DNA of 64,000 bases from Patescibacteria group bacterium. GTDB taxonomy: Bacteria; Patescibacteriota; Patescibacteriia; Veblenbacterales; UBA10138. Positions 4,594 to 61,389 of this stretch are shown in pieces. The position numbers were made by a program, and so were the translations under genes. Under the pieces are notes generated by a model, which did no database searches, was not told the DNA's origin, and saw only the letters and a program-made list of their open reading frames with translations. Location of the stretch: NCBI GenBank assembly GCA_018817715.1, contig JAHITT010000006.1, positions 75,147-139,146 on the forward strand. Reading direction: 5' to 3'. The stretch's first letter is position 1; the number at the start of each line of letters is the position of its first letter.

Positions 4594-4630
4594 TTTTCTA
4601 CCACCACAATTCAATAACCACCAATTAATT

Positions 4631-4670
4631 AAACCTTCTAACATTCTCAAGAATGTTAGAAGGTTTATAA
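4631..4670 (+). terminator. intrinsic terminator hairpin
   Basis: Perfect 17-bp stem AAACCTTCTAACATTCT/AGAATGTTAGAAGGTTT followed by TTTATAA, after the 4593 stop. Confidence 0.5.
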
Positions 4671-8133: not shown

Positions 8134-8220
8134 TTATAAGCTTTACTTATTAAATAGATTTGCTATATTCACTAATACTATGTTGGCCAAGTGTTTAAAT
8201 AACGACAATAACGATAATAA

Positions 8221-8295
8221 CCAGCCCTAAGGACTTGGCCTGTTAGCTTGTATTCAAAAAAAACGCCAGTCCTTACCCAGGGCTGGTGGTTTTTT
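8221..8295 (+). terminator. long GC-rich hairpin plus T-run (terminator or structured RNA)
   Basis: CCAGCCCTAAGGACTTGGC ... GCCAGTCCTTACCCAGGGCTGG stem followed by TGGTTTTTT. Confidence 0.4.
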
Positions 8296-8313
8296 ATAAC
8301 TTAATAATATTAT

Positions 8314-8388
8314 TCTGGGGTAGTTCAAAGGTAGAACGCTGCGCTGTTAACGCAGATGTTGAAGGTTCGAGTCCTTCCCCCAGAGCCA
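8314..8388 (+). tRNA. tRNA-Asn (anticodon GTT)
   Basis: Hand-folded cloverleaf. Acceptor TCTGGGG/CCCCAGA, D stem GTTC/GAAC, anticodon stem CTGCG/CGCAG with loop CTGTTAA, T arm GAAGG-TTCGAGT-CCTTC, and an encoded CCA. Confidence 0.85.
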
Positions 8389-8496
8389 CGCTCAGCGTGG
8401 CTATACCCGCGCTTAGCGCGGGAGCCATATAGATACGTTGAGCAAAAAAAATCACCCGGTGTACGCTAGGTGATTTTTTTATGCTAAAATTAATTT

Positions 8497-8766
8497 ATGT
8501 ATTACACTTATGTTCTCCATTCTATCAAAGATGGACAACTATATACAGGCTATACTCCCAATCTAAAAAGTCGGATTAAATCCCACCAAGATGGCTATGT
8601 CACAGCAACAAAAAGTCGGCGTCCTCTAATATTAATATATTATGAATCATTTATAGTCGAATCTGACGCTAAACGAAGAGAACTTTTTCTAAAAGGTGGC
8701 AATGGTAAAAAAGAATTAGAAAAAATCTTAAAAGATTATTTCAAAAATAATCTCTGGCATAAATAA
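8497..8766 (+). CDS. GIY-YIG nuclease-domain protein
   Basis: YTYVL...LYTGYT...R...H pattern of the GIY-YIG fold. 89 aa. Confidence 0.7.
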   Translation: MYYTYVLHSIKDGQLYTGYTPNLKSRIKSHQDGYVTATKSRRPLILIYYESFIVESDAKRRELFLKGGNGKKELEKILKDYFKNNLWHK

Positions 8767-9019
8767 AATGAACATCCCAAAAACAAAACCTTAAAAACTA
8801 TCTTATTTAATTTTTAACTAATATCTATATCTATTTACGGAAAAAAACACGGTGACGGCATTGTCGGCGGCATATACGGCCTAGGGCTAATTGGTGCAGC
8901 AGTTTATTATATCCAGCAGGCTGACAGCTTTGTTGTAGGCCTTTTAGGCGTACTTAAGGCTATTATTTGGCCAGCCATGCTAATTTACAAATTAATGCAC
9001 TTTTTAGGCATGTAATTTT

Positions 9020-9059
9020 ATAGGCTTATTCGTACGAATAAGCCTATGATATCCACAGG
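9020..9059 (-). repeat. 40-bp repeat copy A containing a 28-bp dif-like palindrome (opposite orientation to copies B and C)
   Basis: ATAGGCTTATT-CGTACG-AATAAGCCTAT followed by GATATCCACAGG. It differs from B and C by paired compensatory changes that keep the palindrome perfect. Confidence 0.6.
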
Positions 9060-9070
9060 GTATATAAATT

Positions 9071-9292
9071 ATGTTTTTTCAAAAAAAGTTATCCTTATCT
9101 TATTTAAGCAAAAATTTGTCTGTAGTGGTGGGTTTGGTTTTGGTCTGGCGGGGGATTTGGTACATACTGGACTGGTTGGACTATGAATTATGGGGTGGTT
9201 ACCACGGCTGGACAGCTTTGGGCGGAGTGGTGCTGGGTTTGTTGATTTTATATCTACCCGACAAAGACTTAAAAGAGATCCAAAAACTCTAA
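9071..9292 (+). CDS. small membrane protein
   Basis: 73 aa with two TM segments. Confidence 0.35.
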   Translation: MFFQKKLSLSYLSKNLSVVVGLVLVWRGIWYILDWLDYELWGGYHGWTALGGVVLGLLILYLPDKDLKEIQKL

Positions 9293-18022: not shown

Positions 18023-19531
18023 ATGTTGGCTTGGCTGCTTAATAAATTTAAAAAAGAAACAGTTTACCGGATATTTGAAATAATACCCGGCCTATTAGTC
18101 TGGTCTACTTTAATCGGAGCAGTTATTTTGTCTTTTATAAAACCGCTGTGGGCCATTTATATAATTATTGTTTTTGACCTTTATTGGTTACTGCGAGTAG
18201 CTTATTTGTTAATTTACATGATTGGTTCCTGGAAAACTTATAAACAAACTGTTAGTCAAAATTGGCGACTAAAACTAACTGCTTTACCGGCTAGCCAAAA
18301 TATTCATCACTTAATCTTTTTACCAACCTATCAAGAATCTTTAGAAGTTTTACGAGCTTCTTTAACATCGTTAGTTAATGTGGACTATCCTTTAGATAAA
18401 TTTATTGTCGTTTTAGCTGGTGAAGCTAGAGATAAAGATAATTTTTTAGAATCAGCCAATTTAATAAAACAAGAATACGGTCACCGTTTTGGACATTTTT
18501 TGATAACTCTTCATCCTAGTGACATAGTGGGGGAAATAGCCGGTAAGGGTTCTAATATTCACTGGGCTGGTCACCAAGCTAAAAAATTAATCGACCAATT
18601 AGGGCTAGATTATCCTAATATAATAGTGTCCACTTTTGATATTGATTCTTGCGCCCACCCGCAATATTTTTCTTATTTAACTTATGTTTATTTAACTCAC
18701 CCCGATCCTTTACATTCCAGCTACCAGCCAGTAGCCATTTATAACAACAATATCTGGCAATCACCGGCTGTTAGCCGAATTGTAGCTAATTCCACAACTT
18801 TTTGGTTATTAACCGATTTGGCCAGACCAGAACGTTTGTTTACTTTTTCTTCGCATTCCATGCCTTTTAAGGCTTTGGTAGATGTTGGTTTTTGGCAAAA
18901 TGACATAGTTACCGAAGATTCTAGAATATTCTTACAATGTTTTGTCCGTTACAATGGCAACTATCAAGTAACGCCCTTGTATATGCCTATTTCTATGGAT
19001 ACGGTCTATGCCGGTTCCTTGTGGCGTAGTTTGGTTAATCAATATAAACAACAAAGACGTTGGGCCTATGGTGTAGAAAATTTTCCTTATATGGCTTGGC
19101 ATTTTTGGCGCTCCAAAACAATCCCTTTTAACAAAAAAACTCGTTATTTATGGAATCAATTAGAGGGAGTTTATTCTTGGGCCACCGCTCCTTTAATTAT
19201 TTTTATACTTGGCCGCTTACCTTTAATGATGGCTGATAATGAAGTTAAAACCACTATTTTAGCTCATAACGCCCCAGTAGTCCTAGGTTGGCTAATGACT
19301 TTAGCTATGATTGGTTTAATATTCAGTGCCGCTTTATCCACCATGCTTTTACCAGCCCGACCCAAGGATAAATCCATCTTCATGTACATACCAATGATTT
19401 TGCAATGGATACTCTTTCCAATTATTATGATTATTTTTGGCGCTATACCAGCCACCGACGCTCAAACCAGATTAATGCTGGGTAAATATTTAGGTTTTTG
19501 GGTAACAGAAAAAAAACGAGCCACAACTTAA
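18023..19531 (+). CDS. processive family-2 glycosyltransferase (membrane synthase, QxxRW)
   Basis: DIDS (DxD) motif and QQRRWAYG (QxxRW). Multi-TM C-terminus. Confidence 0.65.
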   Translation: MLAWLLNKFKKETVYRIFEIIPGLLVWSTLIGAVILSFIKPLWAIYIIIVFDLYWLLRVAYLLIYMIGSWKTYKQTVSQNWRLKLTALPASQNIHHLIFLPTYQESLEVLRASLTSLVNVDYPLDKFIVVLAGEARDKDNFLESANLIKQEYGHRFGHFLITLHPSDIVGEIAGKGSNIHWAGHQAKKLIDQLGLDYPNIIVSTFDIDSCAHPQYFSYLTYVYLTHPDPLHSSYQPVAIYNNNIWQSPAVSRIVANSTTFWLLTDLARPERLFTFSSHSMPFKALVDVGFWQNDIVTEDSRIFLQCFVRYNGNYQVTPLYMPISMDTVYAGSLWRSLVNQYKQQRRWAYGVENFPYMAWHFWRSKTIPFNKKTRYLWNQLEGVYSWATAPLIIFILGRLPLMMADNEVKTTILAHNAPVVLGWLMTLAMIGLIFSAALSTMLLPARPKDKSIFMYIPMILQWILFPIIMIIFGAIPATDAQTRLMLGKYLGFWVTEKKRATT

Positions 19532-19541
19532 CCAATTTAAA

Positions 19542-20633
19542 TTAATTAACGGGCATATTAATAATTTCCACAGCCCCGTTTAATTTAGGTATAGCATAGT
19601 CTTCTATAAGAATAGGGTATTCTTCAAATTTAACAAAAGCGAACTTTACTTGACCGTTCGGCTCTTCTTTTTTTTGAGCTGTTATTCTAACAACTAAACC
19701 CTGTTTGGTTGGTTGACTCCACATTTGATCAAAAATAAAATTACCCAAAGAATAATAAATCATTTTTTTCTTGTAAATTTCTCTAGGCTGCACCCAATGA
19801 GGATGATGCCCAATCACTAAATCAGCACCTTGATCAATGGCTGTATGGGCAAATTTTATCTGACTCAAGGAAGCTTTATCTGTATATTCCACTCCACCAT
19901 GCATACTAACCACAATTAAATCAACTTGCTGTCTAAGATTATCAATTGAGGCGCTTAATTTTTTCCAATCATCCCACCTGGCTATGTAAGGACTGCTAGC
20001 TACGCCATTATCATTAAAAGAACTATAAGAAACGGCCAAAAAACCTATTTTAATGCCTTTGTTTTCTAAAATAGCCGGTTGCCAAGCTTCTGCACTATCT
20101 TGCCCAACACCGGTAACCTGTAGCCCTTGGTTTAACAACAAAGAACGACTATGCTTTATGGCCTTAAGACCATAATCTAAAGCATGATTATTGGCTAGGC
20201 TTAAGACTTTAAAATTATTTTCTACTAAACCTAAAAGACTGTCCGGCCAGGCATTAAACAATAAACTATTAACCGGTGGTATAAAATTAGAACCAGTAAA
20301 AAGTGATTCCAAATTGGCAAAATTAAAATCATTACTTTTAAGCCATTCGCCCATACCAATAAAAGGCAACAGGGGATTATTATGTTTTTTCATTTGATCA
20401 GCTACCTGACGGGACAGCATTATATCTCCCACCACCCCAAAAACTACGTATTGGTCTTTTGGTTGATCTTTTTTTAATTGACTAACCGCCTGGTCAGAAA
20501 AATTTAGGGATTCCTTAGACGTGGTACTTTTGGTGATTACTCCGTACTTAAAATAAAAAAAAGCCGCGAAGAACGCGGCCATAATTAACAAAGCTGAAAC
20601 AACAAAAGAAAAATATTTATCAATTTTATTCAT
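19542..20633 (-). CDS. CapA/PGA_cap-family metallophosphatase-like capsule synthesis protein
   Basis: N-terminal TM helix. SMHGGVEY ... GHHPHW ... SLGNF motifs. Confidence 0.6.
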   Translation of the reverse strand: MNKIDKYFSFVVSALLIMAAFFAAFFYFKYGVITKSTTSKESLNFSDQAVSQLKKDQPKDQYVVFGVVGDIMLSRQVADQMKKHNNPLLPFIGMGEWLKSNDFNFANLESLFTGSNFIPPVNSLLFNAWPDSLLGLVENNFKVLSLANNHALDYGLKAIKHSRSLLLNQGLQVTGVGQDSAEAWQPAILENKGIKIGFLAVSYSSFNDNGVASSPYIARWDDWKKLSASIDNLRQQVDLIVVSMHGGVEYTDKASLSQIKFAHTAIDQGADLVIGHHPHWVQPREIYKKKMIYYSLGNFIFDQMWSQPTKQGLVVRITAQKKEEPNGQVKFAFVKFEEYPILIEDYAIPKLNGAVEIINMPVN

Positions 20634-20635
20634 AT

Positions 20636-21568
20636 TTACTGTAAAACAGTTCCCACAAAAGAAGCCTGGCCACGAATAAAATCTCCAGCCAGCATTGGTT
20701 TTCTTCCTGCTAACTGAATTTCTTTAACTAATATACTGCCAGACTGACAATCAATAGATAACCCTTGGTTTTGATATTCTTTAACCAAACCTGGTTTGGT
20801 TAATTCAACATCTAAAACCTCTGTTTGTAATAATTTAACAACTTGACCTCGCCAAGTAGTCCACAAACCAGGCCAAGGGTAAAAAGCCCGCCTTAAATTA
20901 TTTAACTGCTCAGCAGTTAAATTAAAATTAGCTCGCCCATCCGAACGGCTAATTAACTTAGTATAAGTAGCCAAAGAATGGTCTTGGGCAACTGGTTTAA
21001 TCTTACCTGATAGATAATCAATTAAAACATTGGGTAATATTTCGCCGGCTAAACCAGCCAAAGCTTGGCTTAAAGTTAAGGCATTGTCTTTTTCTTTAAT
21101 AAGGTACTCAACCTGCTTTAATAATGGTCCGTGATCCATCAGATCATCCAAAAGCATTAAACTAACCCCAGTTTTAAACTGACCAGCCAATAAGGCACTA
21201 GCGATAGGAGAGGCCCCTCGATACAAAGGCAACAAAGAAGGATGCACATTAACTATACCTTTAGGGTATAAAACCAAAACTGAAGCTGGCACAATCTGTC
21301 CAAAAGCCGCTAAAACAGCAAAATCTGTTTTAAATTTAGCTAATTGTTTCTTGATATCTACATTTTTTAAACTAGGGGATTCTAATAATTCTAACTGATT
21401 AGCTACAGCTCTTAGACCAACTGGCGAAGAAGTTTTTTTAAGTCCCCGGCCTTTAGCCTGCGGTAAGGTAGTCACCACCAAAACCGGCCTTAAACCAGCT
21501 TTAAGCAAACCGGTTAAAATAATATCGGCAAAATCAGAAGTCCCAAAATAAACAAATGACTTATTCAT
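20636..21568 (-). CDS. fmt: methionyl-tRNA formyltransferase
   Basis: N-terminal formyltransferase domain (NVHPSLLPLYRG) plus a C-terminal domain. Adjacent to def. Confidence 0.85.
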   Translation of the reverse strand: MNKSFVYFGTSDFADIILTGLLKAGLRPVLVVTTLPQAKGRGLKKTSSPVGLRAVANQLELLESPSLKNVDIKKQLAKFKTDFAVLAAFGQIVPASVLVLYPKGIVNVHPSLLPLYRGASPIASALLAGQFKTGVSLMLLDDLMDHGPLLKQVEYLIKEKDNALTLSQALAGLAGEILPNVLIDYLSGKIKPVAQDHSLATYTKLISRSDGRANFNLTAEQLNNLRRAFYPWPGLWTTWRGQVVKLLQTEVLDVELTKPGLVKEYQNQGLSIDCQSGSILVKEIQLAGRKPMLAGDFIRGQASFVGTVLQ

Positions 21569-22043
21569 TTTTATATTTAGCCAACAATTCCTGACCAGCG
21601 ATTATTTCCTTAGTTAAATCTATAAACAAAATACCATTTAAATGATCAACCTCATGCTGATAAACTCTAGCTGTCAAACCGTCTAACCATTCTTGGTGTT
21701 TGAGACCATCACTACCCAAATAATTAGCTAATACTCGAATTGGCCTCTTAACTAACCCATAAACCCCAGGCAAAGATAAACAACCTTCTTCCATAACAAC
21801 TTTGCGCCAAGAAGATTTTACTATCTCCGGATTAAAATAAGCTTGCGGTTTCTCTCCAGTGCTAATAACTATTAATCGGCGGGAAAAATTAACCTGTGGA
21901 GCAGCCAAACCAATACCATTATAATGAACCACGGCCGCTTCCATGGCTTGAGCCAATAATAAATCTGACTTGCTTAAGGGTAGGGGTAAGCTTTCAGCTT
22001 TGGCTCTTAAAATATCCTGGGGAGCGATAATTAAAGGTAACAT
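21561..22043 (-). CDS. def: peptide deformylase
   Basis: GIGLAAPQ, EGCLS and HEVDHLNG motifs. Confidence 0.85.
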   Translation of the reverse strand: MLPLIIAPQDILRAKAESLPLPLSKSDLLLAQAMEAAVVHYNGIGLAAPQVNFSRRLIVISTGEKPQAYFNPEIVKSSWRKVVMEEGCLSLPGVYGLVKRPIRVLANYLGSDGLKHQEWLDGLTARVYQHEVDHLNGILFIDLTKEIIAGQELLAKYKNE

Positions 22044-22057
22044 ATTATAAAAAGTAT

Positions 22058-23908
22058 TTAACTTAAAATATTTTCCGGATCTATATCAATAATAACATCA
22101 TCACCAACTAATGGCCAAATTAAACGGCCAACTGAACTAGTGGTAAATTTAACAAGTAAATGAAAACGATATTTGCCCCTAAGCTGGTGATAATAGTCAG
22201 CATAAGGACCAATTATTACTTCTTGATTCAGTAAATTGGTTTGTAGTTTCTTTTTTAAAACTCTACAACTAGCCAAAGCAGCTGCCTGGCTAGTTAAAGC
22301 AACTGTTAAGCGGAGTAAATTACTAACAGGTGGATAACCGTATTTAATTCTTTCTTTAAGTTCAGTTTCATAAAAATAGGTTAGACCTTCTTTCTTAATA
22401 AAAGATTGCCAAACATAATGTTCTGGCTGATAAGTCTGAATTAATACCCGCGTAGCACCGCTAGATAAAAATCCAGCCACCCGGTGTCTTAATCTTTCAG
22501 TAGCGCGAAATTCTGGCACCGACATTTCATTATCGGGATTAACTAAAATAATCAAACCAAATTTAGTTTTTTGATTATTTAACCAAGCCGTTTGACCACC
22601 CACCAACACAACAGGTCCCACTGGCGCCTTGTCAGATAGACTATCTTTAAAAACAATACTGGCCGGGTATAACTTCTTAACAAATTGATAAAGTCTATCT
22701 AAACCAACTCCCCGCATTGCCACATTATTACCAGAACAATCGGGACAAGGTAGGGGATAAACTTCCTCTAAGGAACAATGATAACAATAAAGATTGTTTT
22801 TGTCTGACCGGCTGACTAAAGTTCTTTGGCATTTAGAACACTTAGCAACATAACCACAATCGGTACAAACCGCCGAAGTAGCTTCACCTAAACGATTAAG
22901 ATAAACAAAAACAGACTGCCCAGTCTTAAGACTTTTTTCTAAGAGTTTTAAAGAAGTCAAAGATAATAAATTTTTATTACCAGCCTGATGTTCAGCTATC
23001 ATATCAATTAAAGTCAATTCCGCTGGCTGACCCTTTAAATCCAACCATTTTTCTTGACCAGCCTGAGCTTTATACCATCTTTCTAAACGAGGAGCAGTTG
23101 ATAAAAGCAAACAAGAAACCGACAAATTCTTGGCCAATTCAATAGCTAAACTCACTGGATCATAACGTGGGTTTTGATCACTTTGCTTATAGTAGTCACT
23201 AGCTGATTCATCAACCACCAGGCCACCCAAATTTAAAAATGGTAAAAACAAAGCCAATCTAGTGCCGACCACAACCACTTTATCTCCCCGCCGTAATTTT
23301 AACCAAACCGCCCGACGATCGGCTAAACTAATTTCCGAAGAAAAAACAACCAAAGAAAATTTATCTTTTAGCTTTTCTTGCCAAAATTCTAAACGACTGT
23401 TAGTTGGGACCAAAAACAATACCTGTTCTTGCCGAAGCATAATCCGATTAAGCAAATTAAAAACAACTTCATCTAATTTGCTAGGAGAAGAATATACCAA
23501 GTTAGTTAAAAAAGAATTCGTTTTCTTAATAAGTGGCCGAGTGCGCTTAGTGCTTATGGGCTCAATTTTAAAATTACGATTAGGTTGCAATAAAATAAAC
23601 AACTTAATAGCCGCCGACATGGTTAAGCCATAATTATGAGATAACCACTTAACCAAATGCAGCTGCCAAGAAAAAAGATAATTAGCAACCACTAAGTCCT
23701 TAACCTCTTTGAGAGTTTTGTTTTTAGGTAACGAAGATTTGATTATTTTTTTTACTACTACCGCCTTTATCAGGCTAGATCGAAAAGGTAAGTTAACTAA
23801 ATCTCCAGGATTCAACTGTAAAGGACCGGCGCTATAATCAAAAACCGTTAATCGGCGCGGCAATCTTTTTAAAGGTACCACTTGAACAATCGGAAACAAG
23901 TTAACCAT
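22058..23908 (-). CDS. priA: primosomal protein N' (PriA helicase)
   Basis: Cys-rich zinc-binding insert CTDCGY...CSKCQ...CYHC...CPDC within a helicase fold. Confidence 0.7.
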   Translation of the reverse strand: MVNLFPIVQVVPLKRLPRRLTVFDYSAGPLQLNPGDLVNLPFRSSLIKAVVVKKIIKSSLPKNKTLKEVKDLVVANYLFSWQLHLVKWLSHNYGLTMSAAIKLFILLQPNRNFKIEPISTKRTRPLIKKTNSFLTNLVYSSPSKLDEVVFNLLNRIMLRQEQVLFLVPTNSRLEFWQEKLKDKFSLVVFSSEISLADRRAVWLKLRRGDKVVVVGTRLALFLPFLNLGGLVVDESASDYYKQSDQNPRYDPVSLAIELAKNLSVSCLLLSTAPRLERWYKAQAGQEKWLDLKGQPAELTLIDMIAEHQAGNKNLLSLTSLKLLEKSLKTGQSVFVYLNRLGEATSAVCTDCGYVAKCSKCQRTLVSRSDKNNLYCYHCSLEEVYPLPCPDCSGNNVAMRGVGLDRLYQFVKKLYPASIVFKDSLSDKAPVGPVVLVGGQTAWLNNQKTKFGLIILVNPDNEMSVPEFRATERLRHRVAGFLSSGATRVLIQTYQPEHYVWQSFIKKEGLTYFYETELKERIKYGYPPVSNLLRLTVALTSQAAALASCRVLKKKLQTNLLNQEVIIGPYADYYHQLRGKYRFHLLVKFTTSSVGRLIWPLVGDDVIIDIDPENILS

Positions 23909-23914
23909 AAATAT

Positions 23915-24700
23915 CTAATAAATAAATTCCGCCGTCAGCCAACCCGCCTCATAAGGCGCTTCGAAAGATATCAAATTTAAATTAATTTTTTTATTAGCTA
24001 AAAAAGATTTAAGCAAAACCGCTGGCGACCAAATTGATTGACCGCTTAACTCCAACAACTCCGTTGGAAAATTATAAATAGACGACCAATCATCTTGGCG
24101 ACTAAAATTTACGAATTGTTGATTAAAAAGTTTAGCTTCCACCTGGTTAGTACCAATAACTCGCCCTAATTCACCAGCGGCCAAAATAACCACCCGTTCT
24201 GAGCTTGATTGCAATTGTTCATATAAGTGCTGACTTACTAAATTTAAATTTTCTAAATCTATTTTCTGCGGAACCTGTAAATATACTAACGGTTTATCAA
24301 CCAAAGACTGGCCAAAAATTAAAAGTGGTACTCCAGCCGTATATGGTAAATTACTTACACTAACCAAAGGAATGGGGAATAAAGATTCCAAAGTTTCTTT
24401 TAAACGATGGGTAAAACCAACGGCCATCTTTATTGATTGCTGGCTTATAAAATCTCCCAAAAATGAATAATCCAAAGTAACTGACTGGTTTTGTAAAAAA
24501 GCCCAATCAGATTTAGTAAGTTTGGTGTCTGAACTAACACTAGATATTACAAAAATAATATCAGGAGAACGTAAAGATAATTCCGAGCCAAGTTGGTTTA
24601 AAGCGGTAGTAGTTTTAACAACAGCCTTTCGCACCTGGCTTTTTAAGCCAGGTAATAAAAGAGGGGAATTGGGTACTAAAGCCGCGCCGACAATAGGCAT
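23915..24700 (-). CDS. hypothetical protein (possible LigB/MEMO-like fold)
   Basis: N-terminal GAALVPNSP resembles GA(I/L)VPH of class III extradiol dioxygenase/MEMO, but with Asn in place of His. Confidence 0.25.
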   Translation of the reverse strand: MPIVGAALVPNSPLLLPGLKSQVRKAVVKTTTALNQLGSELSLRSPDIIFVISSVSSDTKLTKSDWAFLQNQSVTLDYSFLGDFISQQSIKMAVGFTHRLKETLESLFPIPLVSVSNLPYTAGVPLLIFGQSLVDKPLVYLQVPQKIDLENLNLVSQHLYEQLQSSSERVVILAAGELGRVIGTNQVEAKLFNQQFVNFSRQDDWSSIYNFPTELLELSGQSIWSPAVLLKSFLANKKINLNLISFEAPYEAGWLTAEFIY

Positions 24701-24724
24701 AAAAATTAATATTGTTTAATTAAT

Positions 24725-26098
24725 TTAAAAACTAACACCAATAGGGTCACCTAAAACGTGTATACTGATAGCTTCGTCACTAGTGGCAATAACTTTAGAA
24801 AAATCAAAACCTAAATCCAAAAAGGCTTCAGCTGATAAAAAGGGGCGCCTAGTCTGATTAGAAATTAAGTAAACGGTCGCTTGCGACCAAGATCGCACCA
24901 ATTGACCATCACGAAAAACTATCGGCAAACCAGTTAAATATTGTTCCAATTGTTTGGTAGTGGCTCGACTTATTTTACGATTTTTAAAATTATTCTGCAG
25001 TATCTCTCGCGACCAAATAGGATGTTTAACTCCTTCCTGCACCCAAAAAATTCCTCCTGATTTTGTATCCTGTAACAAAACCCCCAAAGGATAAATTGAT
25101 TTATCGGTTATCGGTTCACCCTCACCGTAAGAAATAATATCTTCACTACTGACATTAACTATTTCTTCAGGATTTATTCCTAAACGACGTAAAACTTCAG
25201 CCGAAGCTATACCTCGCAACATATCATCAGCTAACAAATAAACCGTACCTTTAGGAATACGTAAAAAACTGTAATTAGAAAATTTTATCGGACTGCCTTC
25301 AAGATATTTTGATAATTCGGTTTTATTAACCGTTAAAACAGAAGAAAAATCATCATAATACGATAAAAAAACTGAACGATTAGCAAATTGCCTCCTTAAA
25401 CCATTTTGAATATAATAAACCTCTGTTTGACCATCAACATTAAGTAGGGTGCCATCGGGGTAATAACGACTAAAATATCTATTCCAAACAGTCCATAATA
25501 ATCGATTACCAGCTAAATGGGGAGTATAAGTATAAGCTATAGCCGTGGCTTTATTGGCTGGTATGACTACCTGACCATCAACTAATTTGGGTAAACCGGG
25601 CCCAAACCCAGAAATAGTACGGTTTTGACTGTCTAAATCCACTAAATAACTTAAACGAATTCTTTTGGCGGCGCTATAAATTTGATTATAAAAACCTTTA
25701 AATTTTTGTAACAAAGGATCATCTAAACTACAACTGTCGCAAACGGCATAACCCATGGCCCAATCAAAATTTTTATTACTCGGCCTCGGATTTTCTATTA
25801 AACTTTGTTCTTTTTGTAAAAGAGCTAACAAAAATTTCGGGCTTATTTTAAATTCTTGAGCCGATAAATAAATAATCTGACTAGCTGCTAAAGAAGTTAT
25901 TGGATCAACATAATTAGCCAAAGCACTGCCTTTATCTTTTAAAAAAGAATTTATTTGTACCAAATCCATGGAAACATAATCAAACATATCATCGTCCGAT
26001 AATATGTAATTATAGTCGAAATTTTCTTGAGCTAGTCCAACCTTAGGACTAAACAAAAAAAATGCAATAAAAAACCAAGCTACCAGTCGTAATTTCAT
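24725..26098 (-). CDS. secreted hypothetical protein
   Basis: Signal peptide. 457 aa with no recognisable catalytic motif. Confidence 0.4.
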   Translation of the reverse strand: MKLRLVAWFFIAFFLFSPKVGLAQENFDYNYILSDDDMFDYVSMDLVQINSFLKDKGSALANYVDPITSLAASQIIYLSAQEFKISPKFLLALLQKEQSLIENPRPSNKNFDWAMGYAVCDSCSLDDPLLQKFKGFYNQIYSAAKRIRLSYLVDLDSQNRTISGFGPGLPKLVDGQVVIPANKATAIAYTYTPHLAGNRLLWTVWNRYFSRYYPDGTLLNVDGQTEVYYIQNGLRRQFANRSVFLSYYDDFSSVLTVNKTELSKYLEGSPIKFSNYSFLRIPKGTVYLLADDMLRGIASAEVLRRLGINPEEIVNVSSEDIISYGEGEPITDKSIYPLGVLLQDTKSGGIFWVQEGVKHPIWSREILQNNFKNRKISRATTKQLEQYLTGLPIVFRDGQLVRSWSQATVYLISNQTRRPFLSAEAFLDLGFDFSKVIATSDEAISIHVLGDPIGVSF

Positions 26099-26198
26099 GT
26101 TATATATTATAACAAATATTGACCCTTATTTCAATTATTAAACTCTGCTTAACCAACTGTTTTTTATAAACTAAAAATGCTATAATTAAACTATAAAT

Positions 26199-27203
26199 AT
26201 GAAGTTATGGTTGTCTTTAAATTTGGACCAAAATACTTGGCGCCAAACAGGCTCCTATTTGTCTTGTTTAAAAAATCAATTAAAACACAACGATCTTAAA
26301 AGTTATTTAACTCCTGTAAAAAAAGATCAACTAACTACCACTTTTCTAAATGAAGTAACTTTAGCCAAACTACCAGCTTTAACCCTTAAACTTAAAAAAA
26401 TAGCGGACCAAACAACTGTTTTTGATTTAAAATTCAGTTCCTCGGCCTGGCTTAAACAAAATCAGCCAGAAATTTTGCTTAAAACTACTACCAATTCTGC
26501 TTATCGTTTGTTACAAAAAACTATTGCTTTAGAATTAAAAGAAATAGAATTAACAACTAGTAGTTACCAACCAGGTTTAATTATAGCCAAACTAAACAAA
26601 ACAAAAGGCGTCCTACCCAAAATAAACTGTCCACCCTTTACTGTCCAACCTAATGGTCTTAATTTAATAACCAGCCAATTAACTCCCCAGGGACTAATTC
26701 ATAAAAAACTTAATACCTGGCTGTTTAAAACAGAAAAATTTCGACGTAATGTGGTAATTTGTTTACTTAATGCTAATGATGAAATATTACTTACTCAACA
26801 CCAAGATCGGCCACTCAGCTGGCAACTACCCCAAGGTGGAGTAGAATCAACAGAAAATTTAACCCAAGCGGCCCTAAGAGAAATTAAAGAAGAAGTGGGT
26901 GTTTCTCAAACCCGTTGTTTATTGGTTAAGCCAGACCTACACCGTTATCGCTGGCCTAAATATCTTTTATTACACGGTCAAGATCCAGAAAAAAAACAAT
27001 ATGTCGGCCAATTACAAAGTCTAGTTGTATTACGAATAGCCAAACAAACAGTTAATTTAACTTTAGATAAAAGGGAAGCCGCTTTAGCCCTATGGATAAA
27101 ACCAGCTGATTTAATAAAGCAATTGCCTCGTTCCAGAAAACCAATTGGCCGTTTAATAATTAAGGAACTTAAAATAAACAAATTAATCAGTCCTATAACT
27201 TGA
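26199..27203 (+). CDS. NUDIX hydrolase with long N-terminal extension
   Basis: C-terminal Nudix box GGVESTENLTQAALREIKEEVGV. Confidence 0.55.
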   Translation: MKLWLSLNLDQNTWRQTGSYLSCLKNQLKHNDLKSYLTPVKKDQLTTTFLNEVTLAKLPALTLKLKKIADQTTVFDLKFSSSAWLKQNQPEILLKTTTNSAYRLLQKTIALELKEIELTTSSYQPGLIIAKLNKTKGVLPKINCPPFTVQPNGLNLITSQLTPQGLIHKKLNTWLFKTEKFRRNVVICLLNANDEILLTQHQDRPLSWQLPQGGVESTENLTQAALREIKEEVGVSQTRCLLVKPDLHRYRWPKYLLLHGQDPEKKQYVGQLQSLVVLRIAKQTVNLTLDKREAALALWIKPADLIKQLPRSRKPIGRLIIKELKINKLISPIT

Positions 27204-27236
27204 TTTTGCCGGCTTGATAGGGTAATTTAAAATTCT

Positions 27237-28682
27237 ATGGTTAGAGTACGTTTTGCTCCTTCGCCAACTGGCGAACTTCATATCGGCGGCGCCCGCACTG
27301 CTTTATATAATTATCTTTACGCCCTTAAACAAAAAGGGAATTTTATAATCAGAATAGAAGATACTGACCGAGAAAGACTAGTTCCTGGCAGCTTAAACAG
27401 ATTGCTACAAGGTCTTAAGTGGTTGGGTTTAAATTGGCAGGAAGGTCCGGATATCGGCGGACCATATGGACCTTATATTCAATCGGAACGTCTACCAATC
27501 TATAAAGAGCAGGCCCAACAGCTACTTAATAATAATCAAGCTTATTATTGTTTTTGTTCTAGCCAAAGGCTAAGCGAACTTAGACAAACACAATTAGAAC
27601 AAAAATTACCCAGCCGTTATGACCGGACTTGTTTAAAATTAACCAAAGAAATAGTTCAAGATAATTTAAACAATAAACTACCTTTTACTATTCGTTTAAA
27701 AGTACCGACTGGCACAACGACTCTTTATGACTTAATCCGCGGCACAGTGGTCTTTAATAACAAAGAAATAGACGATCAGGTTCTGCTTAAATCAGATGGT
27801 TATCCAACTTATCACTTAGCCAACGTAGTCGACGATCATTTAATGGCTATTAGCCATGTTATCAGGGGAGAGGAGTGGTTACCTTCGGCACCCAAACATT
27901 TATTGCTTTATCAGGCTTTTGCTTGGCAACCGCCGGCCTTTGCCCACCTACCCAATGTTTTAAACAAACAAAAAGCCAAACTGTCCAAAAGAAAAGATGG
28001 TGCGACTGTGTGGTTAGAAACCTACCAGACCCAAGGCTATTTACCAGCCGCCCTGGTTAATTTTTTAACTCTATTAGGTTGGCATCCAACAAACGATCAA
28101 GAAATATTTAACCTTAAGGAATTAAGTCAGCTTTTTTCTTTAGACCGCGTACAAAAAGGCGGAGCTATTTTTGATTTAGATAAACTAAACTGGTTTAATC
28201 ATCTATATTTACAAAAATTATCTTCTAGTGAACTAGATGAAAAACTACAAACTCATTACCAAACTCTTAAACAATCCGGCCGGCCAATCACCAGCACTTT
28301 AAGACTTACAGAAATAATCAAAGACAGGCTAGTTAAATTAAACGATGTTCAATCAACCAATTGGTTTTTTAGTAATGATCTATCAAGCGCTTTACCAATT
28401 ATTGTCCCAAATAAAAGCACCCCTGCCACAACCAAAAAATCGTTACAGTTAGCCCAATTATCCTTAAATCAAACAATAGCTTGGACCATTGAAGCAATTA
28501 AAACAGCTTGCCAAAAAAATCAAGAGGCTAATAAATTATCCAATATGGAATTTTTATGGCCAGCTCGAGTAGCTGTTACTGGACTTAATAAATCACCGGA
28601 TTTTTACACAGCTGCTTGGGCCCTAGGTAAAGAAGAGGCTCTTAAAAGACTGGCTTGGGTAGAAGCAAACATGTTATTATAG
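27237..28682 (+). CDS. gltX: glutamyl-tRNA synthetase
   Basis: Class I HIGH (ELHIGG) and KLSKR (KMSKS-type) motifs. Confidence 0.9.
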   Translation: MVRVRFAPSPTGELHIGGARTALYNYLYALKQKGNFIIRIEDTDRERLVPGSLNRLLQGLKWLGLNWQEGPDIGGPYGPYIQSERLPIYKEQAQQLLNNNQAYYCFCSSQRLSELRQTQLEQKLPSRYDRTCLKLTKEIVQDNLNNKLPFTIRLKVPTGTTTLYDLIRGTVVFNNKEIDDQVLLKSDGYPTYHLANVVDDHLMAISHVIRGEEWLPSAPKHLLLYQAFAWQPPAFAHLPNVLNKQKAKLSKRKDGATVWLETYQTQGYLPAALVNFLTLLGWHPTNDQEIFNLKELSQLFSLDRVQKGGAIFDLDKLNWFNHLYLQKLSSSELDEKLQTHYQTLKQSGRPITSTLRLTEIIKDRLVKLNDVQSTNWFFSNDLSSALPIIVPNKSTPATTKKSLQLAQLSLNQTIAWTIEAIKTACQKNQEANKLSNMEFLWPARVAVTGLNKSPDFYTAAWALGKEEALKRLAWVEANMLL

Positions 28683-29896
28683 ATGGAATGAATAGATTTA
28701 TAAAATCATTATTGATTACTGGCGCTTTAATCTTAAGTTTAGCGCCTTTTTTGCCTAAAACCCAAGTAGCCGCCGTGGATGACTTAAACGAGCAAATAAA
28801 AAACAAACAAAGTCAATTAACCGAATTAAAAAAACAAATTGATACTTACCGTAATGCTATCGCCGATAAACAAGCCCAATCTTCCTCTTTAAAAAAACAA
28901 TTAACCGTTCTGGATGACAAAGTTGCCCAAGCTGAACTTAATATTAAAGGAAAAGAATTGGCTTTAGCAACAGTCACCCTACAAATCCAAGCGGTTACTT
29001 TAGATGTTGGCCGGCACGAACAATCAATTGCCGACAAAAGTTCTAAAATAGCTGAAATACTACGACAACTTTATCAAAATAACCAAAAAAGTCTGTTGGA
29101 AATAATCGCTCTAAATACTTCTTTTGGAAAATATTTTGATCAACTTAGCTATTTAGAAGAATTGGAACGCAATCTGCAACAACAAACCAACCAACTACAA
29201 ACATCTAAAACAGAATTAGAACACCAACAACAAAACTTAGCTCTATATAAAATTGATTTAACTAAGACTAAAAACGACCTGGAAGAATCCAAGGGTCAAT
29301 TAAGTAGCGAATTAAATACTAAACAATACATCCTAAAGCAAACCAGAGAATCAGAAAGCCGTTATCAAAATCTTTTAACCCAAGCTATTCAGGAACAACA
29401 AAAGGCCAATGCCGACATAAATAACTTGGAACAAGAAGTTAGACGGCGTTTAAAAAATCAAGGTATTCAAAGTCTAAACCAACTGGATACTAATTTTATT
29501 TGGCCGGTCAAACCTTATAAAGGCCTATCCACTTATTTTAACGACCCTACTTATATTTTTAGAAAATATTTTGAACATGGGGCCATTGATATTCCCAATC
29601 CGCAAGGAACAGCCATTAAAGCGGCGGCGGCCGGCTACGTGGCCCGAGCCAAAGACGCCGGCTTGGGTTACAGTTATATAATGATAGTCCATAACAACGG
29701 CCTGGCCACGGTTTATGGGCACACCAGCCGAATTGACGTGGAAGAAAACAGCTTTGTTACCAAAGGACAGGTTATTGGCGCTGTTGGTGGCCTGCCAGGC
29801 ACTAGGGGAGCCGGCAGTTTAACCACTGGCCCGCATTTACACTTTGAAATTAGACTTAATGGTATACCAGTTGATCCCTTAAATTATTTACCCTAA
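28655..29896 (+). CDS. coiled-coil M23 peptidase (EnvC-like murein hydrolase/activator)
   Basis: Signal/TM segment, a long coiled coil, and a C-terminal M23 HLHFEIR motif. Confidence 0.75.
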   Translation: MGRSKHVIIDGMNRFIKSLLITGALILSLAPFLPKTQVAAVDDLNEQIKNKQSQLTELKKQIDTYRNAIADKQAQSSSLKKQLTVLDDKVAQAELNIKGKELALATVTLQIQAVTLDVGRHEQSIADKSSKIAEILRQLYQNNQKSLLEIIALNTSFGKYFDQLSYLEELERNLQQQTNQLQTSKTELEHQQQNLALYKIDLTKTKNDLEESKGQLSSELNTKQYILKQTRESESRYQNLLTQAIQEQQKANADINNLEQEVRRRLKNQGIQSLNQLDTNFIWPVKPYKGLSTYFNDPTYIFRKYFEHGAIDIPNPQGTAIKAAAAGYVARAKDAGLGYSYIMIVHNNGLATVYGHTSRIDVEENSFVTKGQVIGAVGGLPGTRGAGSLTTGPHLHFEIRLNGIPVDPLNYLP

Positions 29897-29912
29897 AATT
29901 TTTATATAAATT

Positions 29913-29946
29913 TAAGCAGGCTATTTTGTAGCCTGCTTTTTTTAAT
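29913..29946. terminator. bidirectional terminator between convergent genes
   Basis: AAGCAGGC-TATTTTGTA-GCCTGCTT followed by T-runs. Confidence 0.5.
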
Positions 29947-29948
29947 TT

Positions 29949-30482
29949 TTAAATTATTTCCAGAGTTTTATAACAAAATTCCTGTAAATCGCCCCAAAAA
30001 ATTTCTACGCCATAATCCGCCTTTAAATCAAAATCCACATACCTAGCACCAGAAAACCCATGTTCCATACCCATAATTACCTTACCTGGCCACTCTTGCG
30101 GATTTTCATTTAAACGAGTAAACCATTTACCAACTTCATAACGAGTGGATTGCGCGTATGACCCGTTATAATTAGGCCTCTCTTGGCACTCCATAGGCGG
30201 ACACCAAAACATTATAACCCCCTTAGCATACCCGCCAGTTAAATCCATATGATACTTTATCCAAGCACACTCCTTATACCATTCAGTCATATGAAATCCG
30301 GATAAAACCAATTTTTTAGGTGAAATAATTATCACCTCTGGATCAATATCATGAATAATTTTAATGGCCCGGCTGTGCCAATCTGGAGCGTGTTTAACTG
30401 GACCAGCCAAATAAACCACCTTACAATCAACAGGCAGATTTTTAATTTTTTTAGGATAATGTACTACTTTTGATTTTTTCAT
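29949..30482 (-). CDS. nucleoside 2-deoxyribosyltransferase-like protein
   Basis: VVYLAGP N-terminal motif and STRYEVG, similar to the YLAGP / GTA(F/W)E(I/L)G motifs of the NDT/Rcl family. Confidence 0.4.
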   Translation of the reverse strand: MKKSKVVHYPKKIKNLPVDCKVVYLAGPVKHAPDWHSRAIKIIHDIDPEVIIISPKKLVLSGFHMTEWYKECAWIKYHMDLTGGYAKGVIMFWCPPMECQERPNYNGSYAQSTRYEVGKWFTRLNENPQEWPGKVIMGMEHGFSGARYVDFDLKADYGVEIFWGDLQEFCYKTLEII

Positions 30483-30543
30483 TTTAATATCCTTGCTTTT
30501 GTTATTTTTGGCTTATCTTAAACAAAAAACAAAGATATGTCAA

Positions 30544-31527
30544 TTATTTATTTAAAGGATGAAATTTACGGTGTGTAGTTTCCGCATATTTATCCGAAGC
30601 ATGAACATAGCGAGTAGTAGTATCAAGTGATTCATGGCCCAGCAATACTTGTATAGCGGCCGGATTAGCCCCGCTTTCCGCCAAATAAGTGGCAAAACCA
30701 TGCCTTAGAGAGTGGGCTGAAGTTGGCACATTAATGTGCAACTGTTCCCGATACTGTTTTATTTTCATTTGCAAATAATTAGTCGACAGTCTTTTAGTAG
30801 TTTTGCCAGAATTTTCACCCCGATAAGGAATAAACAAGGCTGGCCAACTATCGTGGCGCAAAGCTAAATAATAATTTATATGCTTTAAGGCCCGATCAGT
30901 TAAATAAACAAAACGCTGTTTGCGACCCTTACCAGTCACAAAAATACGTCCACTTAAATCTATCTGCGATTTGTTTAAACTAATCAACTCAGAAATACGT
31001 AAACCAGTGGCAAATAATACCTCCAACATAGCCCGATTACGAGTGGCCACTTGTTTATTTTTTTCTAGTAAAGAAGGTGACTCAATTAATTTCACCAGCT
31101 CATTAAGTTCTGCCACTTGCGGATGTTTCTTTTCGGTTTTAACCAGTTTAACAGATTCGGGCGACAAAGGTGTTTGGTAATCCAAATCTATTAAATATCT
31201 TAAATAAGCACGTAAACTGGATAACATACGATTTAAAGAATAACTGCGCAAACGTAAGCTTGGTTTATTTTTTTCAGCTGTTAATCGGTCTACTGAGTTT
31301 AAATAAGCCTTATAGCGGTCAATAATTCTTTTGTCTACCTTAAGAAAGGGGATTTTATTATCCAACAAGAACTTATCAAAGACTTTAAGATCTCTTTCGT
31401 AATTATAAATTGTTTCTGGGGAATAATTATTAGTCTGCAAAGACAATAAAAAATCATCCAAATAATCCAAACTCAAAGAAGCTGTTTTAGTTTTGGGGGA
31501 CAGGTGTTTTTTTGCTGCTGTAATCAT
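30544..31527 (-). CDS. Xer-like tyrosine site-specific recombinase
   Basis: ATGLRISEL (Arg I), HSLRHGFAT (H-x-x-R) and LLGHESLDTTTRYVH (H...Y). This is the RHRY catalytic signature. Confidence 0.8.
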   Translation of the reverse strand: MITAAKKHLSPKTKTASLSLDYLDDFLLSLQTNNYSPETIYNYERDLKVFDKFLLDNKIPFLKVDKRIIDRYKAYLNSVDRLTAEKNKPSLRLRSYSLNRMLSSLRAYLRYLIDLDYQTPLSPESVKLVKTEKKHPQVAELNELVKLIESPSLLEKNKQVATRNRAMLEVLFATGLRISELISLNKSQIDLSGRIFVTGKGRKQRFVYLTDRALKHINYYLALRHDSWPALFIPYRGENSGKTTKRLSTNYLQMKIKQYREQLHINVPTSAHSLRHGFATYLAESGANPAAIQVLLGHESLDTTTRYVHASDKYAETTHRKFHPLNK

Positions 31528-31929
31528 AATATTAATAATTAAGGTTTTAACTGAGTGTAAGAGATATTATACTCAGTTTAGCATAAGCCTTTTATTAAGG
31601 CAAACTACTAAAGCTTACTGCTTATTAAGCAGTATTAGCCTATAAATTACGTCCTTAGCCTAGGATTATCAGTCTAAATACTCCTACTCAGCTAATTTAG
31701 ATGCCTTATTAACTGTTAAATTCGCTTTAAACTAATTAGCCACCAACCAAACTAAGTTGTTAACATTAAAATGGTCTTAAATTAAGGTTTGAATTTAATA
31801 AATCCTTAAGGTAGTTAGCTTTAAAATTAATTTAGGTTTACTTTGGAAATGACTGTCCCACTAATAAGTTTTTTTAATACAGTCTTAGTGCTAAAGATAA
31901 TCGCCTAACTTGAATAATTATTAACTTAT

Positions 31930-55671: not shown

Positions 55672-55682
55672 TAATTATTATG

Positions 55683-55714
55683 ACCAAGTTGTTTAAAAAA
55701 CAACTTGGTTTTTT
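55683..55714 (+). terminator. intrinsic terminator
   Basis: ACCAAGTTGTTT-AAAAAA-CAACTTGGT followed by TTTTT. Confidence 0.6.
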
Positions 55715-55746
55715 AATATTAAAAACAACAAAATAACCTAAATTAA

Positions 55747-55786
55747 CCTGTGGATAACATAGGCTAATTCGTACGAATTAGCCTAT
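55747..55786 (+). repeat. 40-bp repeat copy B with 28-bp dif-like palindrome (left boundary of R-M island)
   Basis: CCTGTGGATAAC + ATAGGCTAATT-CGTACG-AATTAGCCTAT. Identical to copy C. Confidence 0.7.
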
Positions 55787-61149: not shown

Positions 61150-61156
61150 AATTACT

Positions 61157-61284
61157 TTATTAAATCATCTAAGGTAACACTAAGAGCCTTAGCGATTTTC
61201 CGCCAGAGGAGGACAGATTTTAACTATCTCAATAGTCGGATTAGGGGTGGCGCCGGCTTTGATTTTGGCCATAGTTAGCATATT
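61157..61284 (-). pseudogene. remnant XRE-type HTH (controller-like) gene disrupted by a 22-nt insertion
   Basis: Frame A reads MNMLTMAKIKAGATPNPTIEIVKI.... Frame B ends ...IAKALSVTLDDLIK*. Removing TGTCCTCCTCTGGCGGAAAATC, flanked by an AAAATC direct repeat, fuses them. Confidence 0.35.
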
Positions 61285-61349
61285 CATATAGCTTTACTAT
61301 ACCAAAAATTACCAAACAAGATAACTAAGCTAAAATCAGCCAAAACCAG

Positions 61350-61389
61350 CCTGTGGATAACATAGGCTAATTCGTACGAATTAGCCTAT
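61350..61389 (+). repeat. 40-bp repeat copy C with 28-bp dif-like palindrome (right boundary of R-M island)
   Basis: Identical 40-mer to copy B. About 235 bp from tRNA-Gln. Confidence 0.7.

Follow-up and report, generated by a model that had tools for sequence, protein, structure and literature searches.

Repressors of the ArsR/SmtB family, such as SmtB, CzrA, CadC, NolR and SdpR, recognize 12-2-12 operators, in which a dimer-sized inverted repeat lies beside the repressor's own gene. HlyU, another protein of the ArsR family, binds a cruciform-forming palindrome in the exsBA spacer of Vibrio parahaemolyticus (PMC10325908). Genes of REP-associated tyrosine transposases (RAYTs) are flanked by repetitive extragenic palindromic sequences (REPs) (PMC3184786), and Rickettsia palindromic elements (RPEs) are repeats that lie within genes as in-frame fusions (Ogata et al. 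2000, as cited in PMC3184786). Here we compare with these systems a 40-mer at positions 9020-9059 of a 64-kb stretch of DNA (64,000 nucleotides of contig JAHITT010000006.1; hereafter, the window) from a bacterium of the Patescibacteria, or candidate phyla radiation (CPR). The 40-mer is composed of a 28-bp palindrome and a one-sided flank, and three copies (A, B and C) reside in the window. Judging from conserved gene neighborhoods and from covariation between protein and site, the 28-bp palindrome is probably the DNA site of a tiny winged-helix protein of the ArsR type.

The CPR accounts for a large share of bacterial diversity, but its members are mostly uncultured and carry very few regulators. 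To our knowledge, almost nothing has been established about the control of transcription in these organisms. With moderate confidence, and from sequence comparisons alone, we interpret the 40-mer as an orphan of a CPR-wide palindrome that would be the cognate site of a symmetric dimer of an ArsR/SmtB-type protein of about 86 amino acids (aa), with a boundary or operator role and a dispersal resembling that of REPs and RPEs.

The palindrome and its candidate partner protein

Copy A begins with the perfect 28-bp palindrome ATAGGCTTATTCGTACGAATAAGCCTAT (9020-9047), which has an 11-6-11 geometry (ATAGGCTAATT-CGTACG-AATTAGCCTAT) and is followed by the flank GATATCCACAGG (9048-9059). Copies B (55747-55786) and C (61350-61389) are mutually identical and lie in the opposite orientation. 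An initial annotation of this DNA had described the 40-mer at 9020-9059 as a third, inverted copy with three changes, and this description is accurate: the reverse complement equals the string quoted there, and exactly three bases distinguish A from B and C, namely those of a symmetric A/T to T/A pair and a single base in the flank (GATAAC to GATATC). All three cores are perfect 28-bp palindromes despite the T/A swap in copy A. The copies and the open reading frames (ORFs) next to copy A are as follows; half-sites are typed by two bases at arm positions 11-10, as explained below.

8827-9015, + strand: 62-aa membrane ORF, which ends 4 bp before copy A and is part of a conserved block (8807-9292)
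9020-9047, no strand: copy A palindrome, with a GG-type half-site and T/A at the variable pair; hairpin of -10 kcal/mol, z -6.8
9048-9059, + strand: one-sided flank of copy A, GATATCCACAGG, with a DnaA-box-like 9-mer (one mismatch); faces the start of the 73-aa ORF
9071-9292, + strand: 73-aa membrane ORF, which starts 23 bp after the copy A palindrome
55747-55758, - strand: copy B flank; the + strand reads CCTGTGGATAAC, with a perfect TTATCCACA on the - strand
55759-55786, no strand: copy B palindrome, ATAGGCTAATTCGTACGAATTAGCCTAT, 7 bp past the stop codon of an inositol monophosphatase (IMPase) gene and between convergent genes
61350-61361, - strand: copy C flank, CCTGTGGATAAC on the + strand
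61362-61389, no strand: copy C palindrome, identical to that of B, 234 bp downstream of tRNA-Gln and dnaX (- strand)

Such a set of matches is not expected by chance, in that none of 100 shuffles of the window contained any 40-mer match with three or fewer mismatches. Across the 64 kb, 13 or more of 14 dyad pairs are found in only four 28-bp stretches, which include copies A, B and C. Folded as single-stranded DNA, the three copies are predicted to form hairpins of -10 to -12 kcal/mol (z -6.8 to -9.5). None of them is intragenic. Copy A nearly fills its 55-bp spacer, and the 73-aa ORF is likely the gene that it affects. Copy C lies 75 bp upstream of a degraded helix-turn-helix (HTH) ORF and Type III restriction-modification (R-M) genes.

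When the core GCTNATTCGTACGAATNAGC was scanned against one genome per species, it was found in 101 genome stretches, nearly all of them from Patescibacteria and distributed over many classes. The groups that carry it include Saccharibacteria, Paceibacterota, and Lipton-, Uhr-, Kerfeld-, Kaiser-, Sung-, Staskawicz- and Nomurabacteria, and the isolate names of these stretches indicate GC contents of 34-61%. Loci were fetched as 8-kb blocks in which genes were called crudely as longest ORFs, and copy counts refer to exact-core sites. The half-site consensus is A-T-N-S-N-C-T-N-A-T-T-C-G around a variable centre of 2-4 bp. Some copies are perfect palindromes of 46-52 bp, whose outer sequence differs from copy to copy. 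Long contigs contain about one exact-core site per ~100 kb, and metagenome-assembled genomes (MAGs) have five at most. We found no description in the literature of the motif or of an ArsR-like protein paired with it.

Loci in which two copies lie 320-385 bp apart all enclose an ORF of ~86 aa. This ORF is by a wide margin the most frequent neighbour, accounting for the largest cluster among the flanking ORFs (30 of 200), and a profile built from it has matches in 34 of 102 sources. The encoded protein is a winged-helix member of the ArsR/SmtB family, with scores of 63.1 and 73.1 bits to NCBIfam NF033788 (cut-off 55), Pfam matches to HTH_20 and HTH_5, and best PDB sequence matches to Lmo1102, HlyU, PagR, CzrA and NolR. 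It is a plain DNA-binding fold that lacks a catalytic domain. To avoid the bias of a search by DNA motif, metagenomes were also searched with the protein alone, which yielded 529 relatives, of which 80 loci were kept. In 61 of the 62 non-redundant loci obtained in this way, the palindrome occurs within 200 bp of the ArsR-like gene; it flanks the gene on both sides in 38 loci, lies only upstream in 11 and only downstream in 12, and is missing from both sides in 1. Upstream sites are located 11-111 bp before the start codon. The gene is usually co-directional between its neighbours, with spacers of ~130 and 113 bp; dnaX is the commonest upstream neighbour, and serS is the commonest downstream neighbour in Saccharibacteria. 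The context of copy C, after dnaX, is the commonest context of the ArsR-like gene elsewhere.

The recognition helix of the protein, SF[R/K]STS[R/K]HL, has two variable residues that track the two half-site bases at arm positions 11-10. Among 94 distinct gene-site sets, GG sites accompany 29 of 30 RR helices, CG sites accompany 17 of 25 RK helices and CT sites accompany 5 of 8 KK helices. None of 10000 permutations reached the observed association, a comparison that is not corrected for kinship. The switch of helix and site is seen within the Saccharibacteria-type subfamily as well as within the Parcubacteria-type one. When proteins with an identity of 55% or more outside the helix are compared in pairs, 60% of the pairs with matching helices have the same site type, as opposed to 16% of those whose helices differ (odds ratio 8); the pairs are non-independent, and the p-value is indicative only. 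A simple code in which one residue specifies one base was also considered, and is ruled out by the mixed site types of KR helices.

The initial annotation offered dimeric protein recognition and hairpin extrusion as two causes of the dyad symmetry. Of these, recognition by a dimer is the better supported, given that the palindrome is tied to a homodimer-type ArsR/SmtB protein and that the half-site tracks its helix. The three copies in the window are orphan GG-type sites, and GG goes with the RR helix. A gene for an ArsR-like protein with such a helix (LSFRSTSRHL, 89 aa) is present in the closest relative, the MAG JBMORS01 (stretch L076, JBMORS010000151, 1248-1517), where the site ATAGGCTA lies 47 bp past its stop codon.

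Dyad symmetry and the level at which it is maintained

The search pattern leaves one pair of the palindrome free, and this pair is complementary at 101 of 111 sites (T/A 48, A/T 44, C/G 7 and G/C 2) and not complementary at 10. Further outward, complementarity amounts to 90, 86, 95 and 88% of sites over the last four positions of the 28-mer and to 74, 63, 56 and 47% over the next four, and it drops to a baseline of 25-30% from about position 10. We also compared the upstream and downstream sites of individual loci, so that the protein is constant. In 456 such comparisons over positions 3-14, 401 pairs were identical, 35 had a single change, 15 had compensated changes and 5 were broken in both sites. 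By a rough estimate, independent arms would give about one compensated change, so the observed number is far above that expectation.

The same conclusion is reached with 131 protein-linked sites (alignment A4) that were picked by an anchor leaving the outer arms free. In these, 77.9% of cells pair, compared with 65.0% in shuffles (0 of 500 reach the observed value), and the covariation score is 0.348, compared with 0.149 in shuffles (0 of 500) and 0.095-0.148 in slid controls. The covariation score bears out the proposal that the dyad symmetry is not a product of neutral drift. The compensated T/A swap of copy A is likewise real: the orthologous site in the closest relative (stretch L100) has A...T where the window has T...A, with the palindrome kept. 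Uncompensated arm changes, which the annotation had named as evidence to the contrary, do occur, including two in the outer arm of the copy B orthologue (L077) and others in 50 of the 131 sites, but symmetric states are still far in excess.

Hairpins that are conserved near the ends of genes might instead act in RNA, as terminators, processing sites or stabilizers. Sites lie just past stop codons in the cases of copies A and B and of the downstream site of the ArsR gene, the stem is strong, and some Saccharibacteria copies have A-run and T-run flanks. However, no T-run follows the stem on either strand at copies A, B or C, a terminator scan of the window did not call the palindrome itself, and ordinary terminators are nearby, such as that at ~55680-55715, which has RNA-type compensation in the relative. 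An Rfam scan of the window matched only two tRNAs. Non-standard pairs read on the sense strand comprise 10 G-T and 10 A-C pairs, and because G-T pairs are not preferred, the constraint acts on DNA or on both strands rather than on the sense transcript. An RNA-level hairpin also leaves the coupling to the recognition helix unexplained, and we consider this role improbable.

Judged from these alignments, the dyad symmetry exceeds what readout by a protein explains. When replication switches templates at a quasi-palindrome, one arm is rewritten as a copy of the other, a process that could create compensated states without selection; the data fit either such switching or selection for the ability to form a hairpin or cruciform. 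The symmetry beyond the core and the compensatory change in copy A would then come from a process at the DNA level, either selection of this kind or templated correction from arm to arm.

Orphan sites, dispersal and the closest relative

Many sites with the exact core do not adjoin an ArsR gene (76 sites). The 36 of these orphans that could be classified lie between co-directional (21), convergent (13) or divergent (2) genes, compared with 432, 80 and 70 in the background, so that convergent spacers are enriched relative to the rest (13 of 36 versus 80 of 582, p=0.001) and relative to divergent spacers (p=0.014). Several orphans fill spacers of just 40-57 bp. Seventeen are inside ORFs of at least 80 aa, although some of these ORFs are short and their coding status is doubtful. 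In-frame copies encode NYSLIRTNKRIV or ANSYELA in miaA, tsaD, prmC, trmD, lysS, lepA and others, which are mostly translation-related genes (intragenic sites are at L001 2426, L030 7386, L082 2330, L011 338, L095 514, L031 2744, L004 289 and L085 2176). The copies in tsaD from two genomes occupy different positions (aa 110 and aa 242); those in prmC from two genomes coincide in position and show compensated differences. Compared with LysS of the window, that of L004 is extended by an insertion of 17 aa.

These observations raise the possibility that the palindrome is a selfish dispersed repeat similar to REPs and RPEs, that the copies in the window are neutral relics surviving where insertion does least harm, and that the ArsR-like protein is a partner in the manner of a RAYT rather than a regulator of host genes. 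Identical repeats at non-homologous places within one genome, the in-frame copies including the 17-aa insertion in LysS, the enrichment of orphans in convergent spacers, and a gene flanked by two copies, as RAYT genes are flanked by REPs (PMC3184786), all agree with this explanation. Yet copy number, counted as exact-core sites, appears low beside the tens to hundreds of copies per genome of a REP system, the flanked protein is without a catalytic domain, no transposase or recombinase recurs among the neighbours in 181 loci, and no target-site duplications were seen. Moreover, sites A, B and that in prmC have been retained in orthologous places and are better conserved than the sequence around them. 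We regard a selfish repeat as the main rival explanation and, on balance, as rather unlikely; it and the site of an ArsR-type dimer can both hold. Judging from the in-frame copies and the bias toward 3' ends, the sites have dispersed like a selfish repeat over evolutionary time.

Several further points weigh against the interpretation of the palindrome as the operator-like site of an ArsR-type dimer. The 64-kb window contains no ArsR-like gene. Many orphans are badly placed for a classical operator, as convergent spacers are enriched and divergent ones depleted, and sites in frame inside essential genes look more like selfish dispersal than like a regulon. The KR helix has no single site type, the outer half-site is highly variable in spite of a nearly invariant helix, and part of the correlation between helix and site could stem from co-inheritance of the gene with its flanking repeats. 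Finally, the arms differ at positions 11-10 in the 50 sites noted above (in L121, L124, L131, L139, L161-L166 and others). Thirty of these join a G-type and a C-type half, and in 27 of the 30 hybrids the 5' half, with the ArsR gene as the reference, is of the G type, upstream and downstream of the gene alike. A simple model of a homodimer reading these sequences does not predict such polar hybrid sites.

The closest relative, the MAG JBMORS01 (stretches L052, L076, L077, L100 and L101), has at least five copies on four contigs. Positions 8807-9292 of the window align with L100 1146-1632 at 80% identity, straight through the 40-mer. The spacer in this alignment has two 8-bp indels, and the only differences within the 40-mer are the compensated pair and a single base of the flank. 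The two genomes diverge upstream of 8807 and downstream of 9292; in L100, tRNA-Asn and the GIY-YIG gene are absent upstream and another gene is found downstream. Copies A and B have been kept at orthologous positions while the surrounding spacer has indels. On the copy B side, the relative's contig stops inside the IMPase gene. The 62-aa membrane ORF begins with ATA in the window and with ATG in L100 (1167-1355), and may either use a non-canonical start or be a recently inactivated gene.

The initial annotation called the 40-mer dif-like and placed it at the edge of a second acquired segment. A dif/Xer or attachment site at the ends of such segments, with B and C bracketing an R-M island and A marking another, would agree with the 11-6-11 geometry, with the arrangement of B and C as direct repeats that are separated by 5603 bp and enclose a GC-richer Type III R-M island, with the Xer-like gene in the window, and with tRNA genes near both A and C. 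Against it, the 64 kb contain three copies and the relative at least five, and in 181 loci the family is linked to the ArsR-like gene and not to a recombinase. Because the alignment with the relative runs through copy A, the 40-mer is not a junction. A site like copy B is also found at the 3' end of IMPase in Saccharibacteria L005 and L012, distant lineages that lack the R-M island (in L005, IMPase and the site are followed by the ArsR gene and a second site). A viral contig collection contained no match to the element, and a centre-symmetric site would give no directionality. E. coli dif showed 8 of 28 identities to the site in a comparison by hand, which is the chance level. Both claims therefore fail, the resemblance to dif being limited to geometry, and we consider a dif or attachment site very improbable. 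The removal of this false call of dif or a genomic island at 9020-9059 is itself a useful result.

Other details of the proposed acquired segment are partly correct. The tRNA-Asn gene (8314-8388) is 632 bp from copy A, close to the ~630 bp reported, and a GIY-YIG gene (8497-8766, Pfam 4e-14) and a start-less membrane ORF are indeed upstream. GIY-YIG adjoins copy A only, and does not recur among neighbours elsewhere. A GC-elevated patch does exist (0.42 at 8150-8600), but at the 40-mer itself GC is 0.36-0.37, near the window average. The rise is due to tRNA-Asn and to a GC-rich hairpin (8389-8432) that lies directly 3' of this tRNA in an AT-rich genome.

The flanks suggest another role, in that TTATCCACA, a perfect DnaA 9-mer, is present in those of B and C and, with one mismatch, in that of A. 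A DnaA-controlled or origin-related element is nevertheless extremely improbable. Each copy has a single box, the 64 kb contain only three perfect boxes and no cluster, and neither dnaA nor dnaN is in the window. Also, the flank CCTGTGGATAAC, which includes the 9-mer, was found only in the window and in JBMORS01 (L052, L076, L077, L100 and L101) and is absent from the family outside this lineage; a search of metagenomes for the 40-mer with its flank gave no matches. The flank can pair with the adjacent outer arm (CCTGT...ATAGG) to form a small second hairpin that overlaps the palindrome (9043-9059, 55747-55763 and 61350-61366), and the one at copy A was picked up by the terminator scan (- strand, 9059-9043).

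Additional features of these genomes were noted. The R-M island between copies B and C (56688-61290; Res of 913 aa) has a GC content of 0.41-0.43, compared with ~0.35 elsewhere, and its mod gene is broken into two frames that overlap (59920-61149 and 59426-59998). Also located between B and C are the degraded HTH ORF, which is XRE-like (61189-61287), and an IMPase gene. On contig JBMORS010000096 of the relative, two copies lie 8.5 kb apart with their flanks facing inward (L101 1396 and L052 1864). They bracket an unannotated 1154-aa ORF and genes for 23S-rRNA-IVP-family, DUF5667 and HTH_17 proteins, a region that is absent from the window. The idea that pairs of sites bracket defence islands was rejected, since the second pair in the relative brackets unrelated genes.

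The copy nearest to the Xer-like tyrosine recombinase gene (30544-31527, - strand) is 21-25 kb away. Directly upstream of this gene are ~400 bp with no ORF or Rfam match (31528-31929), in which a half-site-like TATTAGCCTAT stands alone at 31633-31643; a true dif site, if any, might be located here. Around ~19500-30500, genes on the left point mostly rightward and those on the right leftward, converging close to the Xer-like gene, and from about 12 kb onward the cumulative GC skew declines steadily. The region may be a terminus, although the data on skew and gene orientation are ambiguous. The sole other near-perfect 28-bp dyad in the window is an unrelated perfect palindrome, AAACCTTCTAACATTCTCAAGAATGTTAGAAGGTTT (4630-4667), which has a 17-bp stem and a DNA fold of -15.4 kcal/mol and is between two + strand genes.

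Proposed function and comparison with known systems

The positions of the sites, in tiny spacers, on both sides of the regulator gene and at convergent gene ends, are consistent with a boundary or roadblock occupied by protein. In the model that we favour, a dimer of the ArsR-type protein would occupy palindromes in very short intergenic spacers, and the bound site would act as an operator, roadblock or boundary that limits read-through into the next gene, or its expression. At its own gene, the protein would be autoregulatory. Since perfect palindromes can form cruciforms by extrusion, the bound protein may in addition control this extrusion, as reported for HlyU. A broader proposal is a two-part CPR system in which a non-catalytic ArsR-type protein and a cruciform-capable palindrome of 28-40 bp serve as a transcription boundary or terminator, or in structuring the genome, with the sites dispersing as a REP- or RPE-like repeat that has no transposase. 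The palindromes would bracket the gene of the protein that recognizes them, mark the borders of genes, above all convergent ones, and have been copied elsewhere over time, even in frame into genes related to translation. We consider this proposal possible but doubtful.

If the protein-site pair is confirmed, it would be a first phylum-wide cis-regulatory landmark in the CPR that is readable from sequence. It would also provide a testable specificity code, in which two helix residues correspond to two bases, and a handle on how compact CPR genomes separate neighbouring transcription units. The in-frame copies in essential genes and the upkeep of the palindrome at the DNA level bear on how short palindromes spread and persist.

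Among the systems to which the element can be compared, ArsR/SmtB repressors and their operators have the same fold and family and a dimer-sized inverted repeat beside the repressor's own gene, and they too have a recognition-helix residue that covaries with operator bases. The CPR protein is, however, minimal at 86 aa, and we noticed no Cys/His-rich motif in it, although no dedicated test for one was made. Its sites differ from the known operators in that they lie on both sides of the gene, are nearly conserved across a superphylum, extend to palindromes of up to 36-52 bp, and have orphans at the 3' ends of genes and inside genes. HlyU, which is among the best PDB matches, similarly combines a winged-helix protein of the ArsR family with an inverted repeat and a palindrome able to extrude, but it acts at a single locus of unrelated sequence, whereas the CPR sites form a dispersed family whose cruciforms are predicted from DNA folding.

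The REP/RAYT system (REPINs) also involves short palindromes in spacers, often at 3' ends, a gene flanked by two copies, and a repeat type that follows the protein type. Unlike that system, the flanked CPR gene is not an HUH/Y1 transposase, the number of exact-core copies is low, and the palindrome lacks a GTAG/CGTC tag and is conserved at its centre. RPEs, as described in the source cited above, are palindromic repeats that lie in frame in housekeeping genes and add a short peptide. The CPR elements occur in another phylum, have a binding protein associated with them and are shorter (28-51 bp). RPEs are roughly 100-150 bp in length. The dif sites of XerCD, XerH, XerS and XerA share a length of 28 bp, 11-bp arms and a 6-bp centre with the CPR site, which is unrelated to them in sequence, present in many copies, perfectly symmetric and without a link to a recombinase. 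CIRCE, the controlling inverted repeat of chaperone expression that is bound by HrcA, is also a perfect inverted repeat conserved across distant lineages as the site of a dedicated repressor, but sequence, protein family and position differ, as CIRCE is promoter-proximal. On these comparisons, we liken the element to an ArsR-type operator and to a REP/RPE-like palindrome, from which it is set apart by its conservation throughout a superphylum, by sites on both sides of the gene for their own protein, by upkeep of the palindrome at the DNA level, by in-frame copies and by polar hybrid sites.

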